From an uncultured Pelagibacteraceae bacterium (lineage in GTDB: Bacteria; Pseudomonadota; Alphaproteobacteria; Pelagibacterales; AG-422-B15): a stretch of DNA of 64,000 nt. The stretch is from positions 66,458 through 130,457 of the forward strand of contig CACCAS010000001.1 of NCBI GenBank assembly GCA_902544065.1, read 5' to 3'. Under the pieces are notes generated by a model. The model searched no databases. It had not been told where the DNA came from and was given only the letters and a program-made list of their open reading frames with translations. Position numbers and translations under genes: made by a program. This document shows positions 21,274 to 58,708 of the stretch, piece after piece; position 1 is the stretch's first letter; each line of letters opens with the position of its first letter.

Positions 21274-21726
21274 ATGACACAAAATACATTTATGGAACAG
21301 GCAATAATGAATGCTTTTAAAGGACTAGATTTGGGAGAGGTACCAGTCGGTTGTGTGATCGTGAATCAAGATAATAAGATAATCTCCCAATCATATAATA
21401 AAGTTACAGCGGATAACGATCCCACTGCTCATGCTGAGATTAACGCCATAAGGCAAGCATGCGTTTCCTTAAAATCTGAGCGTTTAATCGATTGTAGTAT
21501 TTATGTTACTTTAGAGCCTTGTATGATGTGTGCCGCCGCAATATCGAAATCTAAGTTAAAAAGACTATATTATGGAGCAGATGATATGAATTTTGGTTCT
21601 ATCAACGGTGGATTTAATTTTTTTCAAACAAAAAATTGCAATCATGTGCCAGAGATTTATGATAGTATTTCAAAAATTCAATGTGAGAATTTAATAAACG
21701 ATTTTTTTAAGGGTAAAAGACCATGA
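21274..21726 (+). CDS. tadA: tRNA-specific adenosine deaminase
   Basis: 150 aa. Zinc motifs 'HAEINAI' and 'PCMMCAAA'. Confidence 0.9.
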
Positions 21727-22928
21727 CAATTTCAGCTAAGGCACAGCAAACAACAGATCGACTAAACACATTTATGGAAAAAAATGTGTATCCAAATAAT
21801 GATACATACCATAAGCAAATTGAAGACTTTGGAAATGATCGTTGGCAGGTTGTCCCTATTGTTGAAGATTTAAAAAAAGAAGCAAAAAAAGAGGATCTCT
21901 GGAATTTGTTTTTACCAGACAGCGATTTAGGGCATGGACTTTCAAATGCTGAATATGCTCCTATGTGTGAAATAATGGGAAGAGCTATGTGGTCTGCAGA
22001 AGTATTTAACTGCTCTGCGCCTGATACAGGTAACATGGAGGTTCTAGTTAGATACGGAACTGATGAACAGAAAGATAAATATCTTAAACCACTTCTTAAT
22101 GGCGAAATTCGATCTGCATTTGCAATGACAGAACCAGCCGTTGCATCTTCAGATGCAACTAATATTGAAAGTGAGATAAAAAAAGAGGGTAATCAATATG
22201 TCTTAAATGGGACAAAATGGTGGACGTCGGGAGCAATGGATCCAAGATGCCAGTTTTACATTTTTATGGGCAAAACTGATCCTGAGAATGAAAATATTCA
22301 TAAACAACAGTCCATGATTTTAGTTGATAAGGATACACCAGGTATTAAAATAAAAAGACATTTGCCAGTTTTTGGATTTGACGATGCTCCACACGGGCAT
22401 GCGGAGGTAGAGTTCAAGGACGTAAAGGTGCCACCTGAAAATATGCTTTTGGGAGAGGGTAGAGGATTTGAAATCGCTCAAGGCAGACTTGGTCCGGGAC
22501 GAATTCATCATTGCATGAGAACAATTGGACTTGCGGAAGTTGCGCTGGAGGCCATGTGCAAACGATTGATGAGCCGTAAAGCTTTTGGAAAAGAGGTAGT
22601 TAGGCATTCTGTGTGGCAAGAGAGAATTGCTGATGCTCGAATTAATATAGAGATGACAAGACTTTTGACCCTAAAAGCAGCATCAATGATGGATGAGGTA
22701 GGCAATAAAGTTGCTAAAAATGAGATAGCTATGATTAAGGTTGCAGCACCGAATATGGCACTTAAGATAATAGATGATGCGATTCAAGCCTTTGGAGGCG
22801 CAGGAGTCACTACTGATCCAAGATTAGCCCAAGCTTATGCCGGCATGAGAACGCTACGTTTAGCAGACGGGCCAGATGAAGTTCATAGACTCTCAATTGC
22901 TAGAAATGAATTAAAAAAATATCTCTAA
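21723..22928 (+). CDS. acyl-CoA dehydrogenase, ACAD10/ACAD11-type
   Basis: 401 aa. Strong resemblance to the ACAD domain of eukaryotic ACAD10/11 ('[16 protein letters not shown]', 'KWWTSGA', '[13 protein letters not shown]'). Asp replaces the usual catalytic Glu in the YEGT-equivalent motif. Confidence 0.88.
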
Positions 22929-22930
22929 CA

Positions 22931-23098
22931 TTGATAAAAAAAAAGAAAACATTCCAAAAAGACAAGTATGGACGTTACATAAAGTCTAAAGAGTTCGATG
23001 TATACTGGGATGAATACCATGAGCTTGAGGATATCTCGATGAAAGAGTCAGTCAGACAAAAGATTGAAAGAACAAAAAAAATTCAAACTAAAGAATAG
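22931..23098 (+). CDS. possible small ORF (55 aa, TTG start), absent from the ORF track
   Basis: Open frame TTG 22931 to TAG 23096-23098: (M)IKKKKTFQKDKYGRYIKSKEFDVYWDEYHELEDISMKESVRQKIERTKKIQTKE. It fills an otherwise empty 159-nt gap. No SD or family recognised. Confidence 0.25.
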   Translation: MIKKKKTFQKDKYGRYIKSKEFDVYWDEYHELEDISMKESVRQKIERTKKIQTKE

Positions 23099-24332
23099 TA
23101 TCTAAAAAATTTATTAGTCGATTTACTTCCTCAATATTATTATAATGAACCATTGAAACTCTAACCACACCATCATTTGGTTCAATTCCCAATCCCATCA
23201 AACACCTCCATGCATAAAACTCACCATTGCGAATTCCAATTTGATTTTTACCTGCAGCTTTTGCAATTTCTAGTGAACTTTTGTCTTTCACAGTAAATGA
23301 GACAGTAGGCATTCGTTCACTTCTAGAGTGAGCAGTTTTGCCAATTAATCTTACATTTTTTTTGATCTTTAAAAATTCGATAAGTGTTTTGATTAGTGTT
23401 TCTTCGTGGTTATAAATTAGCTCAAAAACTCTTTTTCCTTTTTCATGAAGGTTCAATCCTTGTTCTGTAAAATGATGACTGTAAAGTGTTTCATAGTAGT
23501 CAGTGACTCCCGACATGCATGCCAATTCCTCATGGTTTGGGCCGCCTGGGTTCATTGTGTATGGTATCTCTGATGCTAGAAATTCGTGATTCAAGTTTTT
23601 AGTTTGATCAAGAAGTTCTTTTTTCCCATATAAGAGGGCTAAATGTGGACCATAAGTTTTGTATAGACTGAATCCATAGAAATCTATGTCTAATTCTTTT
23701 AGATCAATAATATCATGTGCCATGTACGCTACTCCATCACCAACTACTTTTATGTCATGACTATGAGCTATTGAAATTATTTCTTTTAAGTTATTTATTG
23801 AAGCCACAACATTTGATGTATGACAGACACAAATAAATTTAGTTCTATTTGTTATTAAATTTTTTAAATCTTCAACTTCAAGTTCAGCACTTTTTGGATT
23901 AAACTTCCATTCCTTAATGTTAATTCCTTTTTCCACAAGTTTTCTCCACGAACCAATATTTGCCTCATGGTCTTGATTGGTTACAATTATTTCATCTTCA
24001 GTTTTAAGCCAATCTTTGATTGCATTAGACAGCAAAAACATATTCATGGTCGTTGATGGACCTATAATAAATTCATTTTTTGAAATATTTAATAGTTCTG
24101 CAATTTTCTCTAAGCTGTTATCCATTTCATTTCCTGCTTCAATTGATGGACCAAAGTCACCATAAGGTTGAACTTTCTTAGTAATCATAAAATCATTAAG
24201 TTTTTCAATTACATGTTTAGGAACATATGTGCCCCCTGCATTCTCAAAAAATGCAAAATCAGCAGTTTTTGGATTTTGAAAAACAGGAAATTGTTTTCTG
24301 ACAAATTCTATATCTAGTATATTTCTACTCAA
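23088..24332 (-). CDS. class V aminotransferase-fold PLP-dependent enzyme (cysteine desulfurase-like family)
   Basis: 414 aa. 'NQDHEANIGSW', 'HTSNVV', and a likely PLP-lysine in 'FSLYKTYGPH'. The C-terminal 'IRNGEFYAWRC' aligns with SufS 'VRTGHHCA', placing Tyr at the SufS catalytic Cys position. Confidence 0.8.
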   Translation of the reverse strand: MSRNILDIEFVRKQFPVFQNPKTADFAFFENAGGTYVPKHVIEKLNDFMITKKVQPYGDFGPSIEAGNEMDNSLEKIAELLNISKNEFIIGPSTTMNMFLLSNAIKDWLKTEDEIIVTNQDHEANIGSWRKLVEKGINIKEWKFNPKSAELEVEDLKNLITNRTKFICVCHTSNVVASINNLKEIISIAHSHDIKVVGDGVAYMAHDIIDLKELDIDFYGFSLYKTYGPHLALLYGKKELLDQTKNLNHEFLASEIPYTMNPGGPNHEELACMSGVTDYYETLYSHHFTEQGLNLHEKGKRVFELIYNHEETLIKTLIEFLKIKKNVRLIGKTAHSRSERMPTVSFTVKDKSSLEIAKAAGKNQIGIRNGEFYAWRCLMGLGIEPNDGVVRVSMVHYNNIEEVNRLINFLDTIL

Positions 24333-24333
24333 A

Positions 24334-25398
24334 TTATTTAATTCCTTCTACAATACTCCAACCGAGCTTACCTAATATTGGAACAAAAGCTTCATAATTT
24401 TTAGCTTCTGAGCTTGAAGCAGTTCCATCTCTTACGCGACCCACTATGCCTTGCGCTATTCCTGCAAGTCTAAATATATTATATGCCATATAGAAATCCC
24501 AATTATCAATTTTTTCTCTTCCTGTTTTTTTGTAATAAAGTTCAGCATACTCACTTTCTGATGGAATATTAAGTGACTTAAGATCCGATCCCATCATTCC
24601 TAATCCTTTTGCGCCCGCTGGTAATCTCCATGACATCATATGATATGTAAAATCTGCTATTGGGTTTCCTAAAGTAGATAATTCCCAGTCTAATATTGCT
24701 TTTACTTCATGAGTTATAGGGTCAAATATCATATTGTCTAATCTGAAATCCCCATGAACGATCGATGTCTCTTGATCAGAAGGTATATTTTTAGGTAACC
24801 ATTCTATCAATTCATTAATCTCAGGTATCATTTGTGTTTCAGAATCTTTGTACTGTTTTGTCCATCTATGAATTTGTCTGCCCATGTAGTTTTCGTGTTT
24901 ACCATAATCAGCTAAATTAACTTTATTAAAATCAACGTTATGTAACTTTGCAATAGTATCATTCATAGATAAGTAAATTTCCCTTCTTTGATTTGGATCA
25001 CATCCTGGTAAAAGAAGTTCCCAATAAATGTTACCAACGACATGGTCCATAACAAAAAAAGGTGTACCAATTACTGTTTCATCATCACAATAACCAAATG
25101 TCTTGGGAACAGGAACATCGGTATCATGAAGAGCTGTCATTACCCTGCATTCTCTATCCACTGCATGAGCTGATTTAAGAAGTTTACCTGGTGGCTTCCT
25201 TCTAAGAACAAAATTATTAATATTTGCTTCAACTAGATAAGTTGGATTTGACTGTCCACCCTTAAATTGTGTTATCTGACTTATCTGAATATTATTACCT
25301 ATAAGCTTTTTTAGATAATCATTTAAAGATTCTTTATTAATTTTGAGTTTATCATCAACTTGCTTTGTGCCTGAAAAAATTTCATTTCTATCAGTCAT
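24334..25398 (-). CDS. phosphotransferase (APH/choline-kinase fold), ACAD10/11 N-terminal kinase-domain type
   Basis: 354 aa. 'FKGGQSNPTYLV', 'VLRRKPPGKLLKSAHAVDRE', 'GTPFFVMDHV', and the catalytic loop 'HGDFRLDNMIF' / 'ILDWE'. Confidence 0.85.
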   Translation of the reverse strand: MTDRNEIFSGTKQVDDKLKINKESLNDYLKKLIGNNIQISQITQFKGGQSNPTYLVEANINNFVLRRKPPGKLLKSAHAVDRECRVMTALHDTDVPVPKTFGYCDDETVIGTPFFVMDHVVGNIYWELLLPGCDPNQRREIYLSMNDTIAKLHNVDFNKVNLADYGKHENYMGRQIHRWTKQYKDSETQMIPEINELIEWLPKNIPSDQETSIVHGDFRLDNMIFDPITHEVKAILDWELSTLGNPIADFTYHMMSWRLPAGAKGLGMMGSDLKSLNIPSESEYAELYYKKTGREKIDNWDFYMAYNIFRLAGIAQGIVGRVRDGTASSSEAKNYEAFVPILGKLGWSIVEGIK

Positions 25399-26657
25399 GT
25401 TAAAGCTTTTTTTCCAATATCTTTTCTATAGTACCCCTCGGGCCAGTCTATCAAGTGAATTGAATCATAAATTTTACTTAAAGCTTTACCAAGCGATGCA
25501 TTTTTTGACGTTACAGAGAGGACTCTTCCACCAGTAGCAATAATTTTTTTATCTTTAATAGCTGTTGCAGCGTGAAATACCTGAAAAGTGTCTGTATTTT
25601 CTAAATTATTTATTCCATTAATCACTGTTTCTTTCTCAAATGATCCTGGGTATCCATTCGATGCCATTACAACTGTTGCACAATGATCATCTTCCCACTT
25701 TAATTCATAGTTTTGTAAATCCTTATCAATACAGCTCAGCATAAGTTGAACTATATCACTTTTCATTCTTAACATTAAAACTTGGCATTCAGGATCTCCA
25801 AATCTAATATTATATTCAACAAGTTTTGCCTTCCCATTTTTAATCATCAGTCCTGCATACAGAATACCTTGATATGGGTGACCTAACTCTCTCATAGCAT
25901 TTAGTGTGGGATATATAATCTCATCATCAACTTGTTTTTTAATTTCGTCTGTAAAGATAGGAGCGGGTGAGTAGGCTCCCATCCCACCTGTGTTAGGGCC
26001 AGTATCATTTTCTCCTATGCGTTTATGGTCCTGCGCACTTTCAAGAGAAATAAACTCAGTACCATCAGTGCATACAAAGTAACTTGCTTCTTCACCTTCC
26101 ATAAATTCTTCAATGACTGCAGTCATATTTGTTCCAAATTTATTTTCAAAAATTTCCTTTAGTGCTTTTTCAGCCATTTCAAAACTATCTGCGACAGTCA
26201 CTCCTTTGCCAGCAGCTAATCCATTTGCTTTTACTACAATTGGCAAACTTTGTTTTTTTAGGTATTTCACTGCCTCTTCGTAGCTATCAAAAGTAGAATA
26301 GGCAGCTGTTGGAATTGAATAAGTATCGCAAAGATCTTTCATAAAGCTCTTTGATCCTTCAAGTTGGGATGCATATTTATTTGGACCAAATATTTTAATA
26401 CCTTTTGATACAAAATAATCCACTATTCCTGCAACTAATGGAACCTCAGGTCCAACTACAATTAAATCAATAGATTTTTCGACACAATATGAATGAATAG
26501 AGTTAAAATTGTTAAGGTGTAAATCTTTACATTCAGCTAGTAGACTTATTCCATAATTTCCAGGAATACAAAATAGTGATGTAGTCAAAGGACTTCTTGA
26601 TATTGCATAGCATAGAGAATGCTCCCTAGCTCCATTTCCAAGTACAAGAATTTTCAT
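25395..26657 (-). CDS. purD: phosphoribosylamine-glycine ligase
   Basis: 420 aa. 'MKILVLGNGAREHSL', ATP-grasp core, and 'GPNTGGMGAYSP'. Confidence 0.95.
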   Translation of the reverse strand: MKILVLGNGAREHSLCYAISRSPLTTSLFCIPGNYGISLLAECKDLHLNNFNSIHSYCVEKSIDLIVVGPEVPLVAGIVDYFVSKGIKIFGPNKYASQLEGSKSFMKDLCDTYSIPTAAYSTFDSYEEAVKYLKKQSLPIVVKANGLAAGKGVTVADSFEMAEKALKEIFENKFGTNMTAVIEEFMEGEEASYFVCTDGTEFISLESAQDHKRIGENDTGPNTGGMGAYSPAPIFTDEIKKQVDDEIIYPTLNAMRELGHPYQGILYAGLMIKNGKAKLVEYNIRFGDPECQVLMLRMKSDIVQLMLSCIDKDLQNYELKWEDDHCATVVMASNGYPGSFEKETVINGINNLENTDTFQVFHAATAIKDKKIIATGGRVLSVTSKNASLGKALSKIYDSIHLIDWPEGYYRKDIGKKALT

Positions 26658-42268: not shown

Positions 42269-43399
42269 ATGAATTTTGACTTTTCAGATGATCAAAAGCT
42301 TTTACGCGATCAAGCAAGAAAGTTTTTACAAGATAAATGTGACCGTAAGTCAGTAAGGAGTATCCTAGAAAATCATAAGCAGAGCTATAATGCTAAGTTA
42401 TGGTCTCAAATTTCTGAATTAGGTTGGACGGGTACAGCAATACCTGAAGAATATGGCGGACTTGGTTTAGGCATGTTAGAATTGTGCGTAATAGCTGAAG
42501 AGCTAGGTAGAGCTCTTGCACCCACACCATTTTCTTCTTCGATATATATTTTTGCCGAATTTTTAAAATCGTATGGTACGGATGAACAAAAGAAAAAATA
42601 TTTACCACTCATTGCATCTGGCGAAAAAATTGGAACATTTGCTTTATCTGAAACTAATGGGAAACCAAAACCGAATAATATTAAGACGCAATACGTTTTG
42701 GGTAAATTAAATGGATCTAAAAATCCGGTTTCAGATGGGGAGTCAGCAGATTATATCATTGTTGCAGCAAATTCTGACGGTAATTCGAATTATAATTCAC
42801 TCTCTCTTTATATTATTGATAGAAATGATCCAGGTGTAAATATTTCGAATTTAGAAACCATCGATCCTACAAGACCTGCTTGTACAGTAGATTTAGAAAA
42901 TGTTGCCTGTGAAAGACTCGGAGATGAAGGAATTGGATGGGAGATGATTGATAATATTTTTAATAGAGCAGCTGTTTTATTTTCATTCGAGCAAGTGGGT
43001 GGGGCGCAAGTTTCACTTGATGAAGCAAAAAAATATTCACTTGAGCGATTCGCTTTTGGAAAGCAAATAGGTGCATTTCAAGCTCTAAAGCATAAGATGG
43101 CAGATATGTACGTCAAAATTGAATTAGCAAGATCTAACGCTTATTATGGTGCCTGGGCGTTAAGTACAGACTCAAATGAGCTACCAATTGCCGCTGCAGG
43201 CGCAAGGGTTAGTGCCTCTGAAGCATACAATTTCGCATCTCAGGAAAATATTCAAATTCATGGAGGTGTTGGTTTTACTTGGGAATATGATTGCCACTTG
43301 TTTTATCGTAGATCTAAACTACTTTCTTTAAATATTGGCAGTATTCGTCAGTGGAAAGAAAATTTAATTTCAAATCTTGAAAAAAGGAATATAGTTTAA
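42269..43399 (+). CDS. acyl-CoA dehydrogenase family protein lacking both canonical catalytic-Glu positions (putative non-catalytic partner)
   Basis: 376 aa with an ACAD fold ('EEYGGLGLG', 'QIHGGVGFTWEYD'). The IVD-type site reads 'IFNRAAV' (Asn for Glu). The MCAD-type site reads 'LNIGS' (Ile for Glu). Confidence 0.85.
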   Translation: MNFDFSDDQKLLRDQARKFLQDKCDRKSVRSILENHKQSYNAKLWSQISELGWTGTAIPEEYGGLGLGMLELCVIAEELGRALAPTPFSSSIYIFAEFLKSYGTDEQKKKYLPLIASGEKIGTFALSETNGKPKPNNIKTQYVLGKLNGSKNPVSDGESADYIIVAANSDGNSNYNSLSLYIIDRNDPGVNISNLETIDPTRPACTVDLENVACERLGDEGIGWEMIDNIFNRAAVLFSFEQVGGAQVSLDEAKKYSLERFAFGKQIGAFQALKHKMADMYVKIELARSNAYYGAWALSTDSNELPIAAAGARVSASEAYNFASQENIQIHGGVGFTWEYDCHLFYRRSKLLSLNIGSIRQWKENLISNLEKRNIV

Positions 43400-43401
43400 A
43401 T

Positions 43402-44685
43402 ATGGACTTTAATGACACACCTCAAGAAGCTGAATTTAGAAAAAAAGTAAGAGCTTTTCTAGAAGCGAATGCGGAAAAAAGATCTACTCTATCTTCAAAG
43501 CCAAATGGCGACTCGGGATCGTCTATTTCAAGCGCTGGTGCACCAGAAACTGTAAAAGGTGAAGATGCGGCAAAGGTAGCGCTAGATAATGCTAAAGAAT
43601 GGCAAAGAAAAAAAGCTGATGCAGGATTTGCTGCTATTTTATGGCCAAAGGAATTCGGAGGCTACGGAGGAACTCCTATAGAGCAAGTTATATATGCTCA
43701 AGAAGAACATGACTATTTTGTTCATTCAGGATATTTTGAAATTGGTATAGGTATGCTTGGACCAACTATGATGGCTTGGGGTAAAGACGAGGATAAAAAA
43801 AGATACCTTCCAAAAATGATCACCGGTGAAGAAATATGGTGCCAATTATTTTCTGAACCCTCAGCAGGATCAGATTTAGCTGGTATAAGAATGAAGGCTG
43901 AAAAAGATGGTGACGAATGGGTACTAAATGGTCAAAAGGTATGGACTTCAGGAGCTCATTTTGCTGATTATGGAATGATTGTAGCACGATCTGACCCTAC
44001 TGCTCTAAAACATAAAGGGCTTACATATTTCTATGTTGATATGAAAACACCAGGAATTGAGGCTAAACCTATTAAACAGATTTCTGGATCAGCTAATTTC
44101 AATGAAGTATTCTTCAATGACGTCCGCATACCTGATAGTCAAAGAATTGGTGCGGAGGGTGATGGGTGGAAAGTATCACTTACTACTCTTATGAATGAAA
44201 GATTAGCGGTAGGAGATCCTCCTGGTTTAGATTTTGATCAAATTTTTGAAGCCTCTAAAGAGATAGAAGTTGAAGATGGTCTTGCTGTAAAAAATAGTGA
44301 AGTAAGACAAAAAATGGCTGACTGGTACATTCAGTCGAGGGGATTGCAATATACGAAATACAGGAGTATGACTGCTTTATCAAAAGGCCAAACACCTGGA
44401 CCAGAGCTCTCAATAAGCAAGTTAGTCACAGCATCGAAGATGCAAGATGTATCATCTTATGCACTGGATTTGATGGACATGTCAGGTATGGTTCATCAAG
44501 ATAAAAATCCGGTTCTTAAAAACTTATTCCAAAACGGTTATTTTTTCTCAGCTGCCATGAGAATTGCTGGTGGCACCGATGAAGTTTTAAGAAATATTAT
44601 TGCAGAGAGAGTCTTAGGTTTACCGCAAGATGAAAGATCAGATAAAAAACTGCCTTTCAATGAGTTGCCCTCAGGTAAAAACTAA
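43402..44685 (+). CDS. acyl-CoA dehydrogenase (IVD/LCAD-type catalytic Glu)
   Basis: 427 aa. 'WCQLFSEPSAGSDLAG', 'NGQKVWTSGA', 'LMNERLAVG' (Glu at the IVD position), 'IAGGTDEVLRNIIAE' (Gly at the MCAD position). Starts 2 nt after the upstream ACAD. Confidence 0.88.
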   Translation: MDFNDTPQEAEFRKKVRAFLEANAEKRSTLSSKPNGDSGSSISSAGAPETVKGEDAAKVALDNAKEWQRKKADAGFAAILWPKEFGGYGGTPIEQVIYAQEEHDYFVHSGYFEIGIGMLGPTMMAWGKDEDKKRYLPKMITGEEIWCQLFSEPSAGSDLAGIRMKAEKDGDEWVLNGQKVWTSGAHFADYGMIVARSDPTALKHKGLTYFYVDMKTPGIEAKPIKQISGSANFNEVFFNDVRIPDSQRIGAEGDGWKVSLTTLMNERLAVGDPPGLDFDQIFEASKEIEVEDGLAVKNSEVRQKMADWYIQSRGLQYTKYRSMTALSKGQTPGPELSISKLVTASKMQDVSSYALDLMDMSGMVHQDKNPVLKNLFQNGYFFSAAMRIAGGTDEVLRNIIAERVLGLPQDERSDKKLPFNELPSGKN

Positions 44686-47373: not shown

Positions 47374-49611
47374 ATGCCTAAATTTTCTATAATACTATTT
47401 TTTTACTTTTCAATTTTGATGCATTCATTTGCTGATGAACAAACAATCTGGATTACACCAAATGAAACTGACTATTCAAGATTATCAACTGGTTTAGCTG
47501 GTTCAAATATTACAATAATAAGTGAGAATGAAATCAAAAACTTCAAGAATTTAACTCTTCCAGAAATAGTTGCAACACACTCAGGTGTTCAACTAAGGAA
47601 TCTATTTTCAAACGTAAACTCTACACAAACAACGTTAGATCTAAGAGGATTTGGAGAGTCAGCAAAAAACAATAATTTAATTTTACTTAATGGCCGTCGA
47701 CTGAACGACATAGATATGGCAGGAGTAAATTTCTCAATGGTTCCAATAAAATCCATAAAAAGAATAGAATTAATTCGCGGTGGATCAGCTTCTACAATTT
47801 ATGGTGATGGAGCAACTGGTGGGGCAATCAACATTGTTACAAAAAACGTTTTAGACACATCAATGATTCTTGAGTTTGGAACAAGATCTCATAACACCTA
47901 TTCTACTAATCTCTCGCTTCCAATCAAAATTGACAATACTTCAGGCATACTATTCTCTGCATCTATTAATGAAAGTGACACATATAGGCAGCGTTCAGAT
48001 TTTGAAAGCGAAAGTTATTTAATGAGATATAATATTAAAAAAGAAAATTATGACTTTCATCTAGATATTAATAACAGTTTATATGAACAATTACTTCCTG
48101 GGTCTAGGTATAAAGCAAATTTGAATGGATATACACCATCAGATCCTGTTGCCTGTAATCTATTGTCTGATAGCAGAACAGCTTTTCAAAAAGGAACATG
48201 GTATACTCTGACAGGACAATGTTTAACTAGGGACCCTGATTATGCGAAGTTTGATATCACAGCAATTACTGCTGGTACAAATATCGAATTAGATGATTTA
48301 ACTAATATTTTCATTAGTATTTCAAATAGAGATAAAGAACAGAAAGCCTTTGTTGCAAGTGGAACATCAACTTTAGGGAATCCAACCTCAGAGGATACCT
48401 TTAACCTTTACGAGTTAGAAACAGATTATTTATCACTTAGAACTGATCATAAAACATTTTTAGCTGATCAATTGACAACTTTAAGTATTGGGGTTGATTT
48501 TCAAGAAACTGATTACTCAAAAAAATCAAGTCAAAGTTCTTCACTTCAATTTGGAGGATTTGTTAACGCATCACAAGAAAGTAGAGCAATATATTCACAG
48601 AATTCTATAAATTTCAATGAAGGAAACTCAATTATGTCATTTGGAGCTAGGCTCGAAAATGCTGATTATAAAGTGAGAGAGTCATTTGATAAATCCGTGA
48701 GTAAGTATGCATCTAGTTCAGCGCGTGATCCGTATCAAACAAAAATGTCAAATCACGCTGTCAATATAGGCATTGAACACATTTTAGATAATCAAAATAG
48801 ATTATTTGCAAAATATGCTGAAGCTTTCCGAACTCCAGATTTAGACTCGAGAAATGAAACGTGTGTTAAAAGTTACAGTTACCCCTGTAGTCATCCGGCT
48901 TTTTTTCTTAAAGATCAAAAATCTGACGAGACTGAGATTGGCATTCGTCACAAACAAAATAATTTTAGTTTAAATGCAAGTATATTTGAGATGAATACAG
49001 TAAATGAAATAAGGTATATACCTGAAAAAAATAATACTAATCTAGATCCCATTAAGCGTAAGGGTCTTAATCTAGATTTTAATTATAATTTAAACAAAGA
49101 TATAAATATCGTTGGATCGTTTACGTATATTGATGCACATTTCACCTCTGGCTCACTTACTAGAGGATATTTTGAGGGAACCTATGCGGCTAATTCTCAA
49201 ACTGCGATTAGCAAAATGGACAGTAGTAGAAACTTAAATGACGGAACTTATAATATTGCCGGACTAAAAGTACCCCTGGTATCTGAATATATTTATAACT
49301 TAGGTTTAAATTATAATATGCCACGAGAAATATTATTTAAAATAAATATGTCATTTGTTGACGATATGTTTGTTTCAAATGATCAAGAAAATATAGAGCC
49401 TACCATACCAAGTTACTATTTATTTGATTTAAGCCTTAGTTCTGAAAATGAATATGGAACGTGGTCTTTTGGTATAGACAATATATTTAATACTAGTTAT
49501 TACAATTTTGCAGTTGCAAGTACTGACCATGTAGATCAGAGCTATGGGAGACAAAACATGTACCCAATGGAAAGAAGAAGTATCTTTTTAGATTATTCCT
49601 ATGAATTCTAG
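47374..49611 (+). CDS. TonB-dependent outer-membrane receptor (BtuB-like by context)
   Basis: 745 aa. Signal peptide, TonB-box-like 'EQTIWITP', plug domain ('RGFGESAKNNNLILLNGRRLND', 'IELIRGGSASTIYGDGATGGAINIVTK'), and a C-terminal '...YSYEF' terminal Phe. Lies downstream of the B12 riboswitch. Confidence 0.9.
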   Translation: MPKFSIILFFYFSILMHSFADEQTIWITPNETDYSRLSTGLAGSNITIISENEIKNFKNLTLPEIVATHSGVQLRNLFSNVNSTQTTLDLRGFGESAKNNNLILLNGRRLNDIDMAGVNFSMVPIKSIKRIELIRGGSASTIYGDGATGGAINIVTKNVLDTSMILEFGTRSHNTYSTNLSLPIKIDNTSGILFSASINESDTYRQRSDFESESYLMRYNIKKENYDFHLDINNSLYEQLLPGSRYKANLNGYTPSDPVACNLLSDSRTAFQKGTWYTLTGQCLTRDPDYAKFDITAITAGTNIELDDLTNIFISISNRDKEQKAFVASGTSTLGNPTSEDTFNLYELETDYLSLRTDHKTFLADQLTTLSIGVDFQETDYSKKSSQSSSLQFGGFVNASQESRAIYSQNSINFNEGNSIMSFGARLENADYKVRESFDKSVSKYASSSARDPYQTKMSNHAVNIGIEHILDNQNRLFAKYAEAFRTPDLDSRNETCVKSYSYPCSHPAFFLKDQKSDETEIGIRHKQNNFSLNASIFEMNTVNEIRYIPEKNNTNLDPIKRKGLNLDFNYNLNKDINIVGSFTYIDAHFTSGSLTRGYFEGTYAANSQTAISKMDSSRNLNDGTYNIAGLKVPLVSEYIYNLGLNYNMPREILFKINMSFVDDMFVSNDQENIEPTIPSYYLFDLSLSSENEYGTWSFGIDNIFNTSYYNFAVASTDHVDQSYGRQNMYPMERRSIFLDYSYEF

Positions 49612-49666: not shown

Positions 49667-50188
49667 ATGATGAAATTAAATAAAAATAATTACTATGTCA
49701 TCATAGGCATTATCGTATTACTCGCCATGGCTAGATTGCTTCCACATCCACCAAACTTCACTCCAATTCTTGGTATGGCTGTATTTTCTGGAGCAATAAT
49801 AAGTAGAAGATTGATTGCCTATTTAATTCCTCTAGCTGCTATGTTTCTTAGTGACTTATATTTAGGCTTACATTCCAGCATGCCTATTATTTATTTCTCT
49901 TTAGCAGTCTGTGTTTTGATTGGAACATTCATTAAGGCAAGAGTAACTATTTTGAATTCTTTTTTAAGTATCAGTTTAGGGGTATTAGTATTCTTCTTAA
50001 TCACAAATTTTATGGTTTGGTATGGATCAGGAATGTATGAGTATAGTATTTCAGGTCTTATGACTTGTTACTTTATGGGACTGCCTTTTGTGCAAAATAC
50101 ATTTATTTCAAGTATTTTGTATGGAATGGGAGCTTTCTTAATCTACGATATAATCAATAAACGTATGATTTTTGGCAATAATGCTTAA
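49667..50188 (+). CDS. small polytopic membrane protein, candidate ECF-S/BtuM-like corrinoid transporter
   Basis: 173 aa with 5-6 hydrophobic helices. Contains 'LLPHPPNFTPILGMAVF'. Sits 55 nt downstream of the riboswitch-controlled receptor on the same strand. The function is a context-based hypothesis. Confidence 0.6.
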   Translation: MMKLNKNNYYVIIGIIVLLAMARLLPHPPNFTPILGMAVFSGAIISRRLIAYLIPLAAMFLSDLYLGLHSSMPIIYFSLAVCVLIGTFIKARVTILNSFLSISLGVLVFFLITNFMVWYGSGMYEYSISGLMTCYFMGLPFVQNTFISSILYGMGAFLIYDIINKRMIFGNNA

Positions 50189-50254: not shown

Positions 50255-51457
50255 ATGGATACAGCATTTTCAAATGAAGATTTAAAATTTCAATCAGACG
50301 TAAGAGAATTTATCTCAAACAATTATCCAAAAGAGCTGAAAGATTCAATTGGTACTAAAAGGAAAACTGGCAAAGAGTTGTCCCGTGATGACTTAATGTC
50401 ATGGCATAAAATTCTAGGCAAACACAATGGATGGTCAGCCCCGGGATGGCCTAAACAATATGGAGGAGCAGAATTTTCTCCAACACAAAAATATATTTTT
50501 GAGCAAGAATGTGCTCGAGCTGAATGCCAATACATCATGCCTTTTGGCGTAAACATGGTTGGCCCGGTTATTTATACATTTGGCAATGACGAACAAAAAG
50601 CAAAACATCTTCCAGGAATTCTTAGTGGAGATGTATTTTGGTGCCAGGGATATTCAGAGCCAGGGTCAGGATCTGATTTAGCATCTCTTAAAACAAGCGC
50701 AGTCAAAGAAGGTGACCATTATATCGTTAACGGTCAAAAAACTTGGACTACTTTAGCACAGCACGCAGACTGGATTTTTTGTCTAGTAAGAACAAACCCA
50801 GATGCGGAAAAACCTCAACAGGGAATCTCATTTCTTTTGATTGATATGAAAACTCCAGGCATTACTGTTCGTCCAATTAAGCTTATGGACGGATCTCACG
50901 AAGTTAATGAAACATGGTTTGACAATGTAAAAGTTCCGGTTGAGAATCTGATTGGGCAAGAAAACATGGGTTGGACCTACGCAAAATTTTTACTAGCCCA
51001 TGAAAGATCAGGTATTGCTGGTGTCGCGAGGTCCAAAAAAGCCTTAGAAAGAATAAAGCAAATTGCGAGCGCTGAAATGTCTTATGGTGAACCGTTAATA
51101 CAAGATCCTGCATTTAAATCTAAAATAGCAAACGCTGAACTTGAATTAAATTCTTTAGAATATACTGAGCTTAGAACTTTAGCGAAAGATTCAGCGGGAA
51201 AAGGTCCTGGTCCAGAGTCTTCACTCTTGAAAATTAAGGGTACTGATATTCAACAAATGGTTACTGAACTTGCGATGGAAGCAGTTGGATATTATGCAAA
51301 CCCGCACTTGGGCACTACATTAAGTAATGAATATGTAGGACCAGATTATGCAACTAATTTATCAGGATCATACTTCAATTTCAGAAAAGCATCTATTTAT
51401 GGTGGTTCTAATGAAATTCAGAGAAATATTATCGCTAAGATGGTTCTTGGATTATAA
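50255..51457 (+). CDS. acyl-CoA dehydrogenase (IVD/LCAD-type catalytic Glu)
   Basis: 400 aa. 'WCQGYSEPGSGSDLAS', 'NGQKTWTT', 'LLAHERSGIAG' (Glu at the IVD position), 'IYGGSNEIQRNIIAK' (Gly at the MCAD position). Confidence 0.88.
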   Translation: MDTAFSNEDLKFQSDVREFISNNYPKELKDSIGTKRKTGKELSRDDLMSWHKILGKHNGWSAPGWPKQYGGAEFSPTQKYIFEQECARAECQYIMPFGVNMVGPVIYTFGNDEQKAKHLPGILSGDVFWCQGYSEPGSGSDLASLKTSAVKEGDHYIVNGQKTWTTLAQHADWIFCLVRTNPDAEKPQQGISFLLIDMKTPGITVRPIKLMDGSHEVNETWFDNVKVPVENLIGQENMGWTYAKFLLAHERSGIAGVARSKKALERIKQIASAEMSYGEPLIQDPAFKSKIANAELELNSLEYTELRTLAKDSAGKGPGPESSLLKIKGTDIQQMVTELAMEAVGYYANPHLGTTLSNEYVGPDYATNLSGSYFNFRKASIYGGSNEIQRNIIAKMVLGL

Positions 51458-51499
51458 AATTTTTTGACAATCTAGCTGTCAATATATAGGACTATCTCC

Positions 51500-52678
51500 A
51501 TGAATTTTGATTATACAGAAGAACAAACTCTTCTTGAAAACATGGTTACTTCATTTGTAAGAGATGACTATGACTGGGATACAAGATGCTCAATTGTTAA
51601 AACTGAAGAAGGATGGAAAGAAGAGAACTGGAAGAAGTTTGCTGAACTAGGTCTTTTGGGAGTTCCCTTTGAAGAGGATCATGGTGGATTGGGTGGTGAA
51701 GCCACTGACATAATGATTGTAATGGAGCAATTTGGAAAAGGCCTTGTTGTAGAGCCTTACATGCCTTCAATAATTCTAGCTGGAGGTCTCATCTCTAAAC
51801 TGGGGTCAGCAGATCAAAAAAATTCAATTATTCCAGAAATTATTTCAGGTAATAAACGTTATGTTTTTGCATACGCAGAACCTCAAAGTAGGTTTGATTT
51901 ATTTGATGTCAAATGTTCAGCAAATCTTGATGGTGATAATTATATTATTAATGGATTTAAGTCAGTAGTCTTTGGTGCTGGCATGGCAACTCACTTAATT
52001 ATTTCAGCAAGGACTGAAGGAGATCAAAGGTCAAAGTCGGGAATTACATTATTTCTGGTTGATATAAAATCTGACGGTATTACTTTACAGAATTATCCTA
52101 CAATAGATGAGTACAGAGCATCAGAAGTTGTTATTGAAAACTTAAGTGTGTCAAAAGAAAATATTTTAGGCGAGTTGGGCAACTCTTATGAAGCAATTGA
52201 AGAACAAGTAGATTTATCTACAATTGCAATATGCTCGGAAGCTGTGGGAATTTTACAAGTACTTAAAGACTCTACGAATGATTATTGTAAAAATAGAAAA
52301 CAGTTTGGACAGCCAATTAGTGCAAATCAAGCGATACAGCACCGTCTTGTCGATATGATGATTGAATATGAGCAAGCAAAATCAATTCTCTATATGGCAA
52401 TTACAGCTGACCTTAGCAATCCAAACGAAAGAAGAAAAGCAGCATCTGCTGCAAAAGCTCGTATCGGAAAAGCTATTAAATTTGTTGGAGAAAATGCTAT
52501 TCAATTACACGGTGGTATGGGTGTTGTTGACGAGTATATGATTAGTCATTTTTTTAAAAGAGCAACAATGATCGGTATTCTGTTCGGCAATGTTGATTTC
52601 CACATGAAAAGATATATTGATTTGACACAATCTGATATTCAGTCAATAAACGAAGACGACGGAATTAATCTTTCTTAG
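51500..52678 (+). CDS. acyl-CoA dehydrogenase family protein lacking both canonical catalytic-Glu positions (putative non-catalytic partner)
   Basis: 392 aa with an ACAD fold ('EEDHGGLGG', 'QLHGGMGVVDEY'). The IVD site reads 'VDLSTIA' (Ser for Glu). The MCAD site reads 'ILFGNVD' (Phe for Glu). Confidence 0.85.
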   Translation: MNFDYTEEQTLLENMVTSFVRDDYDWDTRCSIVKTEEGWKEENWKKFAELGLLGVPFEEDHGGLGGEATDIMIVMEQFGKGLVVEPYMPSIILAGGLISKLGSADQKNSIIPEIISGNKRYVFAYAEPQSRFDLFDVKCSANLDGDNYIINGFKSVVFGAGMATHLIISARTEGDQRSKSGITLFLVDIKSDGITLQNYPTIDEYRASEVVIENLSVSKENILGELGNSYEAIEEQVDLSTIAICSEAVGILQVLKDSTNDYCKNRKQFGQPISANQAIQHRLVDMMIEYEQAKSILYMAITADLSNPNERRKAASAAKARIGKAIKFVGENAIQLHGGMGVVDEYMISHFFKRATMIGILFGNVDFHMKRYIDLTQSDIQSINEDDGINLS

Positions 52679-52690
52679 ATAAATAATTAC

Positions 52691-53593
52691 CTATTCCGAT
52701 AGCTTTTTAAATATATGGGCAGTATGTTCTGCTCCACTTCTAAGAGCTTTACTGCTTGTCATATCTGAAGCTTCTGACCATTTTTCGGCAAGCATATCAG
52801 CATTTAGATCATCCCCTTTAAGAGCAATTCCTTCAGAATGAACGATTTCAGCCATTGCAAAAACACCAGCTCCAGCAGAAATCATTACACCATCAGGCGC
52901 ATTTTCAGAAGCCATGAATATTACCGCAGGAGATACAGATTCAGGCTTTAGGCTATCAAATACTGCATCGGGCATTCCAAGATTTTCCGTCATTCTTGTA
53001 GCTGCGACGGGTACGAGTGAATTTACTTTGATATTATTCTTTTGTCCTTCAATTCTGAGCGTATTCATTAAACCAATAACTCCCATTTTAGCTGATCCAT
53101 AGTTAGACTGTCCAAAATTACCAAATATTCCTGAAGAAGAAGATGTCATAACTATGCGTCCATATTTTTGCTCTACCATAATTGGCCATACAGCTTTCGT
53201 ACAATAGACTGATCCCATCATATGTACATCAACTACAAATTCAAAATCATCTAAGGTTACTTTTGCAAAAGATTTATCTCTCAAGACACCGGCATTATTG
53301 ACCAAGACATCTATTCTGCCGTAAGCTGCCATTGCATCATCTACAAGTTTTTTTACACCAGCTTTATCAGTTACACTTGATCCATTTGAGATAGCGTCAC
53401 CACCTATAGACTTGATTTCATCGACAACCTTATCAGCTGCTTCACTTGATCCACCTGATCCATCTACGGCACCTCCTAAATCATTAACAATAACTTTTGC
53501 ACCTCTTTCAGCAAATTGAAGAGCATGGCATCTACCTAATCCACCCCCAGCTCCTGTTACTATTGCTACTTTATCCTTAAAACTTATTGTCAT
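52691..53593 (-). CDS. SDR, MFE-2 / 17-beta-HSD4-type (3R)-3-hydroxyacyl-CoA dehydrogenase
   Basis: 300 aa, colinear with the N-terminal dehydrogenase domain of peroxisomal multifunctional enzyme 2: 'VTGAGGGLGRCHALQFAERGAKVIVNDLGG', 'VNNAGVLRDKSF', 'YGRIVMTSSSSGIFGNFGQSNYGSAK'. Confidence 0.88.
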   Translation of the reverse strand: MTISFKDKVAIVTGAGGGLGRCHALQFAERGAKVIVNDLGGAVDGSGGSSEAADKVVDEIKSIGGDAISNGSSVTDKAGVKKLVDDAMAAYGRIDVLVNNAGVLRDKSFAKVTLDDFEFVVDVHMMGSVYCTKAVWPIMVEQKYGRIVMTSSSSGIFGNFGQSNYGSAKMGVIGLMNTLRIEGQKNNIKVNSLVPVAATRMTENLGMPDAVFDSLKPESVSPAVIFMASENAPDGVMISAGAGVFAMAEIVHSEGIALKGDDLNADMLAEKWSEASDMTSSKALRSGAEHTAHIFKKLSE

Positions 53594-53602
53594 TTTAAAC
53601 TC

Positions 53603-54262
53603 CTATACAATCAAATCTTTTAATTGAGTAAAATTATTTATCACCATATCAGCCTCTTTGTAAATATTTTTATTATCAGTATATCCATACTCAACTAGAA
53701 CAACTGGCATATTTGCGTTATGACCTGCATTTAAATCTGTTGCACTATCTCCAATCATTATTGAATCAGACCGATTGATTTTGAGTTGGTTACAGATTTC
53801 AATTAAAGGGAAAGGATCTGGTTTACTTTTAATGTATGTATCTCCTCCAGCCAAGAAATCAAAGTACTTTAATACATCTAACTTCTCTAAAAGCATGACA
53901 CTTAATTTTTCCATTTTATTTGTACATACCGCCAATTTAATTTCTTTAGATTTAAGATACTCTAAAACTTCCCTTACATTATTAAAAAGTATACTGTCAT
54001 CATCAATATTATGCGTATAATGAAGTAAAAATATTTTTAACATCTCATTTAATTTTGCATCATCGTGTTCAATATTTTTTGAAACAGCAGTTCGTCTTAT
54101 CAATTCACGCGCACCATAGCCCACCAAATTTCGTATTTCCTCAAGCGAAATTAATGGATAGTTGAGTTCAGAAAGCATATAGTTTAGAGAATTTTTAAAG
54201 TCTGGAGCTGTATCTACAAGTGTTCCATCGAGATCAAAAATAAATAATTTTTTGTTTTTCAT
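53603..54262 (-). CDS. HAD-superfamily hydrolase, phosphoglycolate phosphatase-like
   Basis: 219 aa. 'FIFDLDGTLVDT', 'CTNK', 'GDSATDLNAG'. Confidence 0.8.
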   Translation of the reverse strand: MKNKKLFIFDLDGTLVDTAPDFKNSLNYMLSELNYPLISLEEIRNLVGYGARELIRRTAVSKNIEHDDAKLNEMLKIFLLHYTHNIDDDSILFNNVREVLEYLKSKEIKLAVCTNKMEKLSVMLLEKLDVLKYFDFLAGGDTYIKSKPDPFPLIEICNQLKINRSDSIMIGDSATDLNAGHNANMPVVLVEYGYTDNKNIYKEADMVINNFTQLKDLIV

Positions 54263-58024: not shown

Positions 58025-58708
58025 ATGACAGTAACTCTCAAAGAAGAAGGTGATGTATCAATCATTCATATGGATGATGGTAAAGTAAATGTTTTTTCAC
58101 CAGAGATGATTCAGAATTTTGAAAAAATTATGGATAAAATTCCAACCAATAAGGGTTCAGTTTTAATCACAGGAAGACCTGGCATGTTTTCAGCTGGATT
58201 TGATTTAAAGGTTATGATGTCGAGTCCTGAAAATGCTGCCGCTATGGTAAAATCTGGATTCTTAATGTTGAAAAGAGTTTTCTCATTTCCTCGTCCTGTA
58301 GTTGCTGCATGTAGTGGACACGCTATTGCCCTTGGGGCTTTTCTTTTATGCAGCAGTGATTACCGCGTTGGCTGTGAAGGTGATTTTAAGGTTGGGGCAA
58401 ATGAATTAAGAAACAATATGATTGTGCCAACACCTATTTTAGAAATTGCAAAATTTAAATTAACAAAATCACACAAGCAAAGGGCACTTCTCAACGCTGA
58501 AATGTATTCAATAAAAGATTCTATCGAACCAGGATATATTGATGAAGTTGCAAGTCCTGAAAGTTTTTATGATGTCGCCCTAGCCAAAGCTAAAGATTTA
58601 GCAACTTTGGCACACCCTCAATATGATCAAACTAAAAAACTCGATCAGGAAGATGTGTTACCTAAAATTAGCAAAGGTATAGAACAAATCACCTCACCTG
58701 TTGGGTAA
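58025..58708 (+). CDS. enoyl-CoA hydratase/isomerase (crotonase) family protein
   Basis: 227 aa. 'FSAGFDLK' oxyanion-hole region and 'VVAACSGHAIALGAFLL'. Confidence 0.8.
   Translation: MTVTLKEEGDVSIIHMDDGKVNVFSPEMIQNFEKIMDKIPTNKGSVLITGRPGMFSAGFDLKVMMSSPENAAAMVKSGFLMLKRVFSFPRPVVAACSGHAIALGAFLLCSSDYRVGCEGDFKVGANELRNNMIVPTPILEIAKFKLTKSHKQRALLNAEMYSIKDSIEPGYIDEVASPESFYDVALAKAKDLATLAHPQYDQTKKLDQEDVLPKISKGIEQITSPVG

Follow-up and report, generated by a model that had tools for sequence, protein, structure and literature searches.

Two genes of a SAR11 bacterium, one coding for a kinase and the other for an acyl-CoA dehydrogenase (ACAD), point towards each other across a short interval, and the question they raise is whether they form one metabolic module or are neighbours by inheritance only. 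They lie in a stretch of 64,000 nucleotides (G+C about 33%) from an uncultured Pelagibacteraceae bacterium (contig CACCAS010000001.1, positions 66,458 to 130,457), which we refer to as the window. In mammals, ACAD10 and ACAD11 combine a kinase and an ACAD domain in one polypeptide and have been reported to phosphorylate 4-hydroxyacyl-CoAs and to eliminate the phosphate again, giving 2-enoyl-CoA (Rashan et al. 2025 and Paquay et al. 2024; PMC12440821, PMC11342911). A sequence-only reading of the window had proposed that the two genes encode a split version of this module. We consider it probable, judging from sequence comparisons, that the pair consists of the SAR11 orthologues of the two enzymes by which 4-hydroxyacyl-CoAs enter β-oxidation. 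The proposed module was supported by orthology, by active-site residues and by gene linkage; its split bacterial form, however, had already been assayed: a separate kinase and ACAD from Burkholderia pseudomallei can substitute for the ACAD10 domains in vitro (Paquay et al. 2024, PMC11342911), and the LvaA/LvaC pair of Pseudomonas putida was assayed as well, each of the two pairs catalysing both steps concerned (PMC11342911, PMC12440821). A split kinase and ACAD in bacteria is thus established, and nothing reported here alters the known chemistry. What the locus offers is a specific, testable function for two SAR11 genes that carry only generic public labels ('acyl-CoA dehydrogenase' and 'aminoglycoside phosphotransferase family'). 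In our literature search, no paper was found that names SAR11 together with ACAD11.

The ACAD exceeded the Pfam cut-offs for PF02771, PF02770 and PF00441 (E 1e-12 to 1e-37). In phmmer searches of the Protein Data Bank (PDB), it matched 4hr3 (437 bits, 57% identity) and residues 374–768 of mouse ACAD11 (8v3u; 431 bits, 54% identity), while every other ACAD structure reached at most 147 bits, with FadE3, MCAD and SCAD at about 145. A reciprocal search of the whole window with the two ACAD11 domains matched only the ACAD and the kinase under study (419 and 250 bits, respectively). Scores of the remaining four ACAD paralogues of the window were 86 bits at most, and no second aminoglycoside phosphotransferase (APH) gene was detected. 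The resemblance to the ACAD domain of ACAD10/11 noted before was thus recovered in both search directions, at scores well above anything that chance would give. No NCBIfam equivalog reached its curated cut-off for either the ACAD or the kinase.

In ACAD11, D753 serves as the catalytic base in place of the usual glutamate, and R626, H634 and R637 bind the 4-phosphate and are essential by mutagenesis (PMC12440821). Mapping of these positions by HMMER alignment (chain index + 1 = residue number) placed D382 of the window ACAD, within the motif LADGPDEVH that starts at L380, opposite D753, confirming the Asp-for-Glu exchange that had been read from the sequence. R255, R260, H263 and R266 aligned with R626, R631, H634 and R637 of ACAD11, H263 and R266 belonging to an HCMR motif. 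All four residues sit in a 13-residue motif (positions 254–266), in which R260 is a general ACAD residue. This motif was invariant in 35/35 full-length kinase-linked ACADs (linkage as defined below) from alpha-, beta- and gammaproteobacteria, and all 35 also carried [LFI]ADGPDEVH, with variation at the first residue only. Both motifs were absent from the four other ACADs of the window. The assignment of the window protein as an ACAD10/11-LvaC-type enzyme, predicted to eliminate phosphate from 4-phosphoacyl-CoA, is supported by these comparisons. The 4hr3 protein has HHAMR at the place where 35/35 of the kinase-linked ACADs examined have HHCMR.

The kinase gave its best structural match to 3dxp (352 bits, 48% identity), followed by residues 6–335 of mouse ACAD11 (253 bits, 40% identity) and 9o56 (173 bits, 33% identity). 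All remaining PDB entries scored 42 bits or less, other APH-type structures falling between 23 and 42 bits and macrolide phosphotransferases at 23. Together with the reciprocal match, the ACAD11 score bears out the earlier suggestion that the protein resembles the N-terminal kinase domain of ACAD10/11. D217 and N222, located in HGDFRLDN, correspond to D220 and N225 of the ACAD11 kinase domain, of which D220 is essential by mutagenesis (PMC12440821), and D237-W238-E239 matches the DWE metal-binding motif. R66, which replaces the β3 lysine, and E83, the αC glutamate, were invariant in our kinase alignment (A1). LvaA is only 29% identical to ACAD10/11 kinase domains (PMC11342911), whereas the window kinase shares 40% with ACAD11, which places the window kinase in the ACAD10/11-proximal branch. 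From these sequence relationships, we assign it to the ACAD11/3dxp branch with its HGDFR loop, apart from the branch of the Caldalkalibacillus thermarum enzyme discussed below. The entry 3dxp is titled 'putative acyl-CoA dehydrogenase' although the protein is an APH-fold kinase, the name having probably been inherited from the fused ACAD10/11 proteins.

Given the APH fold recognized by Pfam and the annotation of relatives as 'aminoglycoside phosphotransferase family', the kinase might be taken for an aminoglycoside or macrolide phosphotransferase or for a homoserine kinase. We regard the chance of this as minimal: with cut-offs of 205 and 271 bits, the NCBIfam models for APH(3') and homoserine kinase returned scores of only 39 and 21 bits, respectively, and the 23 bits to macrolide phosphotransferases compare with 253–352 bits to ACAD11 and 3dxp. 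The grouping with aminoglycoside or homoserine kinases that would have spoken against the module was not seen, and an identity as antibiotic or homoserine kinase is refuted at the sequence level.

By orthology, the following reaction course would be expected for the pair. The APH-fold kinase would transfer the γ-phosphate of ATP to the 4-hydroxyl group of a 4-hydroxyacyl-CoA. In the ACAD, D382 would be the base that removes the proton from C2, with a hydride passing transiently from C3 to flavin adenine dinucleotide (FAD). The 4-phosphate, presumably held by R255, H263 and R266, would then be eliminated, according to the published proposal via a 2,4-dienoyl-CoA intermediate, and the flavin hydride would return to the substrate to yield 2-trans-enoyl-CoA. 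Such a sequence would involve no net redox change and would not need electron transfer flavoprotein (ETF). It is the mechanism that was proposed for ACAD10/11 in PMC11342911 and PMC12440821.

A functional pair might be expected to leave a trace in gene neighbourhoods. One genome per GTDB species was scanned with alignment A1, which returned 80 loci, and further SAR11-like contigs were added through exact-protein look-ups, so that 90 kinase loci entered the linkage count. An ACAD was counted as linked if it shared at least 45% identity with the window ACAD and lay within the fetched flank of the kinase locus. The best match of the scan came from the Pelagibacteraceae single-amplified genome AG-894-A11 (kinase 97%, ACAD 100% identical); a look-up of the exact window kinase sequence gave no entry. 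A linked ACAD was present in the flank of 43/90 kinase loci, so that the co-occurrence on which the sequence-only reading had made its proposal depend was indeed found; we roughly estimate that chance would place two single-copy genes 10 kb or less apart in well under 1% of genomes of these sizes. Among SAR11-like loci, 10/13 had a linked ACAD, all in convergent orientation. Beta- and gammaproteobacteria showed linkage at 14/21 loci, 13 of them with the ACAD on the same strand, 17–190 nt downstream of the kinase. For other alphaproteobacteria, the count was 14/43, with 12 convergent arrangements at a distance of 0.8–4.7 kb, and for the remaining groups 5/13 (three adjacent on the same strand, one convergent). 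This comparison across genomes supports a functional kinase–ACAD pair. In several non-SAR11 alphaproteobacteria, a second, tandem kinase paralogue was located directly 3′ of the first and ahead of the convergent ACAD (L019, 4469–5518; L014, 11072–12127; L015, 11072–12139; L029, 10733–11827; L021, 12351–13394), which suggests sub-functionalisation, possibly towards different substrates.

Three layouts were distinguished within SAR11. In the first (window, L001–L005 and L086–L088), purD, the kinase gene and a gene for a pyridoxal 5′-phosphate (PLP) enzyme converge with a small open reading frame (ORF), the ACAD gene and tadA. The second (L083/L084; kinase 70% and ACAD 90% identical to the window proteins) is devoid of the PLP enzyme, and the gap of about 170 nt between kinase and ACAD is filled by the small ORF. 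The third (L085/L089/L090; kinase 68–69% identical) retains purD, kinase and small ORF. Unrelated genes come next, first those for an HDAC-family protein, for Sua5/YrdC and for a 2-oxoglutarate-Fe(II) oxygenase, and farther on those for TauD, for an AMP-binding ligase and for an aldehyde and an iron-containing alcohol dehydrogenase. At the majority of alphaproteobacterial loci, the gene immediately 5′ of the kinase is purD, and outside SAR11 the ACAD is often adjoined by tadA, as in L013–L015, L019, L030, L044 and others; L030 and L044 share the same set of genes (purD, kinase, rsmD, rluB, tadA, ACAD) with one block inverted. The purD–kinase combination is an ancient alphaproteobacterial gene pair, and since both purD–kinase and tadA–ACAD recur in other alphaproteobacteria, the SAR11 layout represents inherited alphaproteobacterial synteny.

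Several observations weigh against a dedicated 4-hydroxyacyl-CoA pathway at this locus. Kinase and ACAD are not co-transcribed in the window; the genes adjoining the pair include neither an LvaD-like reductase nor an acyl-CoA synthetase nor a regulator, and there is no acyl-CoA synthetase among the annotated ORFs of the window. In the third SAR11 layout, no ACAD10/11-type gene was present within 10 kb of the kinase. Moreover, no ACAD10/11-type gene was nearby at 27 kinase loci whose flanks measured 5 kb or more on each side, among them Caulobacter, Hyphomonas, Henriciella and the SAR11-like loci L085/L089/L090, showing that the kinase is able to persist without local linkage. In alphaproteobacteria, the synteny of purD–kinase and tadA–ACAD might be sufficient to hold the two genes near each other. 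Finally, a 2026 preprint (PMC13596139) reported phosphorylation of 1-O-alkylglycerols by ACAD10-type kinases, including several prokaryotic homologues, and left the relation of this activity to that on 4-hydroxyacyl-CoA unsettled.

Taken to its end, the synteny argument would make the two genes unrelated, the ACAD being a conventional, ETF-linked enzyme and the kinase serving some other purpose, with both held close by the old purD–kinase and tadA–ACAD pairs of a compact genome. The convergent orientation and the housekeeping genes around each partner would fit such a case, as would the PLP gene insertion tolerated in one subclade and the linkage broken in one SAR11 lineage. We nevertheless consider it quite improbable. 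The invariant R255, H263, R266 and Asp base would have no rationale in a conventional ACAD; ACAD10/11 showed no activity when assayed head to head with unsubstituted acyl-CoAs (PMC12440821); and members of these two families occur fused in eukaryotes and in operons in beta- and gammaproteobacteria.

The alkylglycerol activity leads to a different and more serious objection, namely that the main substrate of the kinase is a lipid alcohol (a 1-O-alkylglycerol or a monoacylglycerol-like compound) and that the ACAD is near by inherited synteny, with no functional coupling. ACAD10 and several purified prokaryotic kinases phosphorylate chimyl alcohol, some of them stimulated by acetyl-CoA (PMC13596139), and the 27 kinase loci without an ACAD keep this idea alive. 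The homologue from C. thermarum described there has R61 in place of the β3 lysine, the αC glutamate E78, an HYDxK loop and a DWE metal motif; judging from its HYDYK loop, 9o56 is probably this enzyme. If so, all catalytic residues are common to the two kinases, R66, E83, D217, N222, D237 and E239 of the window protein matching R61, E78, D214, N219, D234 and E236 of 9o56, so that the likeness extends from the APH fold and the Arg and Glu positions to Asp, Asn and DWE. The overall relationship points elsewhere, however: with 352 bits to 3dxp and 253 to ACAD11, the window kinase stands nearer to these two than to the C. thermarum type (173), with which it shares only 33% identity, and carries HGDFR instead of the HYDYK of that enzyme with reported 1-O-alkylglycerol phosphorylation. 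The tight kinase–ACAD operons of beta- and gammaproteobacteria and the conserved phosphate pocket of the ACAD argue for a coupled pathway, and no sign of ether-lipid metabolism was seen in the window. A lipid alcohol as the main substrate therefore appears unlikely to us. The picture of synteny, operons, fusions and ACAD-less loci may still inform the debate on the true role of ACAD10/11 kinases.

The 4-hydroxyacyl-CoA pathway could in principle take the form of a strict P. putida-type levulinate (lva) operon for 4-oxo- and 4-hydroxyvalerate. According to those passages of PMC6692424 that treat Rand et al. 2017, P. putida uses LvaA(B) and LvaC, LvaB being a small accessory protein of 12 kDa that accompanies the LvaA kinase, and lvaABCD homologues occur in alpha-, beta- and gammaproteobacteria. 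LvaA and LvaC are homologous to the two window proteins; the two-step logic is the same, and the catalytic Asp as well as the active-site motifs recur in LvaC. Furthermore, a short-chain dehydrogenase/reductase (SDR) that might play the role of LvaD directly adjoins the kinase–ACAD operon at 6/15 operon-type loci of beta- and gammaproteobacteria (L020, 9–692; L041, L051, L058, L071 and L077), as would fit the reduction of 4-oxoacyl-CoA by an LvaD-like enzyme. At these operon-type loci, glutathione S-transferase and enoyl-CoA hydratase each recur in three loci; ORF clustering of the high-GC loci was noisy owing to spurious antisense ORFs, and besides the SDR these two were the only recurrent partners that looked genuine. 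The gene content of the window, however, largely refutes an lva-type operon. In P. putida, the operon is subject to induction, and a reductase, a CoA ligase and a regulator belong to it, none of which is found beside the window pair: no LvaB, LvaD, LvaE or LvaR homologues and no SDR, AMP-binding ligase or sigma54 regulator are adjacent. The SDRs of the window are only 29–33% identical to the operon-linked SDR, a generic similarity, and the 29% of LvaA against the 40% of the window kinase also speaks for a different kinase branch. An lva operon in the strict sense is thus very improbable here; the LvaA/LvaC analogy drawn earlier stands for the homologous pair but fails for the locus as a whole, given the missing LvaD-, LvaE- and LvaR-like neighbours.

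Because the convergent genes of the window sit inside two tight packs of otherwise housekeeping genes, tadA–ACAD–small ORF opposite purD–kinase–PLP enzyme, a constitutive clean-up or scavenging role fits the 4-hydroxyacyl-CoA pathway better than an inducible catabolic operon. The genes around the pair include tadA, rluB-like, rsmD, pgi, purD, xseA and similar ones. Scans for sigma-70 promoters and intrinsic terminators between 20400 and 27000 returned fewer sites than shuffled controls and were uninformative on transcription units.

The closest characterized relative is mouse ACAD11 (8v3u/8v3v): both modules are present in the window, the equivalents of R626, H634, R637 and D753 and of D220 and N225 are kept, and the predicted chemistry is the same. 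The window modules differ from ACAD10/11 in that they are two convergent genes, not one fused polypeptide, and have no organelle targeting, and from ACAD10 in particular by the absence of its haloacid dehalogenase (HAD) domain, which Pfam detected in neither window protein. Like the window pair, the split pair of B. pseudomallei (kinase Q63VL0) consists of a separate kinase and ACAD of the ACAD10/11-proximal branch. The same branch holds 3dxp, a Cupriavidus kinase, and 4hr3, a structural-genomics 'putative ACAD' from Mycobacterium abscessus. In the betaproteobacterial loci of our set, the two genes form a same-strand operon with a gap of 17–190 nt, whereas the SAR11 pair is convergent and embedded in housekeeping units.

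Across SAR11 loci, identity among the matches listed amounted to 86–100% for the ACAD, compared with 68–97% for the kinase, 60–95% for purD and 62–95% for tadA. The ACAD still kept to this range where purD had dropped to 60–67% and the kinase to 68–80%. One exact ACAD sequence (P0256) was present on 378 metagenome contigs, and the corresponding 90% cluster comprised 981 members. These values indicate that the SAR11 ACAD is under unusually strong purifying selection. Strong conservation in a streamlined genome, together with metagenome abundance, suggests that the handling of 4-hydroxy acids is important for SAR11, be it to obtain carbon or to clear lipid-oxidation products. One could go further and suppose that the module is strongly conserved and near-core in SAR11, which is the most abundant heterotroph of the sea, possibly with the 55-aa product of the small ORF as an LvaB-like kinase partner, and that 4-hydroxy acids are quantitatively relevant, unrecognised labile dissolved organic carbon or lipid-damage products of the surface ocean; we would give this extended view a rather low likelihood. 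Candidate substrates would then be γ-hydroxybutyrate, γ-hydroxyvalerate, 4-hydroxy acids derived from oxylipins or lipid peroxidation, and opened γ-lactones.

The arrangement of the locus is given in Table 1. ORF coordinates, lengths and strands, and the position of the PLP gene between the two halves, agreed exactly with the sequence-only reading when the window was read again, and the kinase peptides quoted there (FKGGQSNPTYLV, RRKPPGKLL and HGDFRLDNMIF) are present in the kinase ORF, as is the quoted ACAD peptide in the ACAD ORF. The 3′ ends of ACAD and kinase are 1405 nt apart. Overlaps of 4 nt join the tadA stop to the ACAD start and the purD stop to the kinase start; the PLP gene begins 1 nt beyond the kinase stop, and its 3′ end overlaps the convergent small ORF by 11 nt.

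Table 1 Genes of the kinase–ACAD locus and further features of the window (positions counted from the first nucleotide of the window)
Feature	Position	Strand	Remarks
tadA-like tRNA adenosine deaminase	21274..21726	+	Pfam MafB19-deam, dCMP_cyt_deam_1; context gene directly 5′ of the ACAD
ACAD10/11-LvaC-type acyl-CoA dehydrogenase-fold enzyme, 401 aa	21723..22928	+	predicted 4-phosphoacyl-CoA phosphate elimination to 2-enoyl-CoA
SAR11-specific small ORF, 55 aa	22931..23098	+	TTG start; starts 2 nt past the ACAD stop
class-V aminotransferase-fold PLP enzyme, 414 aa, UstD/FGM3/TIGR01976-like	23088..24332	-	PF00266, E 1e-51
ACAD10/11-type APH-fold small-molecule kinase, 354 aa	24334..25398	-	PF01636, E 8e-51; predicted 4-hydroxyacyl-CoA 4-kinase
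purD (phosphoribosylglycinamide synthetase)	25395..26657	-	Pfam GARS_N, GARS_A, GARS_C; context gene directly upstream of the kinase
adjacent pair of ACAD paralogues	42269..44685	+	42269-43399 resembles 51500-52678 (30% identity)
TonB-dependent receptor	47374..49611	+	
DUF6580 protein	49667..50188	+	
adjacent pair of ACAD paralogues	50255..52678	+	50255-51457 resembles 43402-44685 (33% identity)
SDR	52691..53593		
HAD hydrolase	53603..54262		
enoyl-CoA hydratase	58025..58708		

The small ORF was open with an identical stop position in 13/13 SAR11-like loci, and gene calls for L001, L085 and L089 included it. Its lysine- and glutamate-rich product has the core YW[DNS][DE][YF]HxLE[DS][IL]SMxESxRQ, and substitutions were skewed to third codon positions (e.g., 11/7/28). 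Database matches were confined to hypothetical proteins of Pelagibacteraceae, and no Pfam family was found. In the L085/L089 lineage, the small ORF is still located beside the kinase though the ACAD has gone from the neighbourhood. In P. putida, LvaB accompanies the kinase, and a conserved 55-aa gene occupies the corresponding neighbourhood in SAR11; that its product is a kinase partner analogous to LvaB is speculation.

In the PDB search, the PLP enzyme aligned over its full length with fungal FGM3 (228 bits) and with UstD (182 bits), whereas the best SufS entries (123 bits) covered residues 7–244 only. Its score against TIGR01976 (VC1184-like) was 305 bits, below the cut-off of 352, and inspection by eye revealed GEFYA where SufS has the GHHCA loop with the persulfide cysteine. 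UstD is a decarboxylative aldol enzyme that makes γ-hydroxy amino acids. The enzyme was found only in the SAR11 subclade of the window (L001–L005, L086–L088); neither L083/L084 nor the L085 lineage has it, nor does any of the 77 non-SAR11 loci. From its sequence and distribution, we read it as a subclade-specific insertion, UstD/FGM3-like and not a typical cysteine desulfurase. It is probably not part of the module; a role as a general third component was rejected on account of its absence from L083/L084 and all 77 non-SAR11 loci.

The four other ACADs of the window are arranged as two adjacent pairs of paralogues, 20–30 kb downstream of the kinase–ACAD pair. None of them has the ACAD10/11 motifs, and in several the canonical base position is not occupied by an acidic residue. 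The two pairs resemble two heteromeric ACADs of the α/β type (PimC/PimD- or FadE26/27-style). Genes for an SDR, a HAD hydrolase and an enoyl-CoA hydratase are found near these pairs. Between the two pairs lie the gene for a TonB-dependent receptor and, following it, that for the DUF6580 protein. Receptors of this type are an uncommon feature of the streamlined genomes of SAR11.

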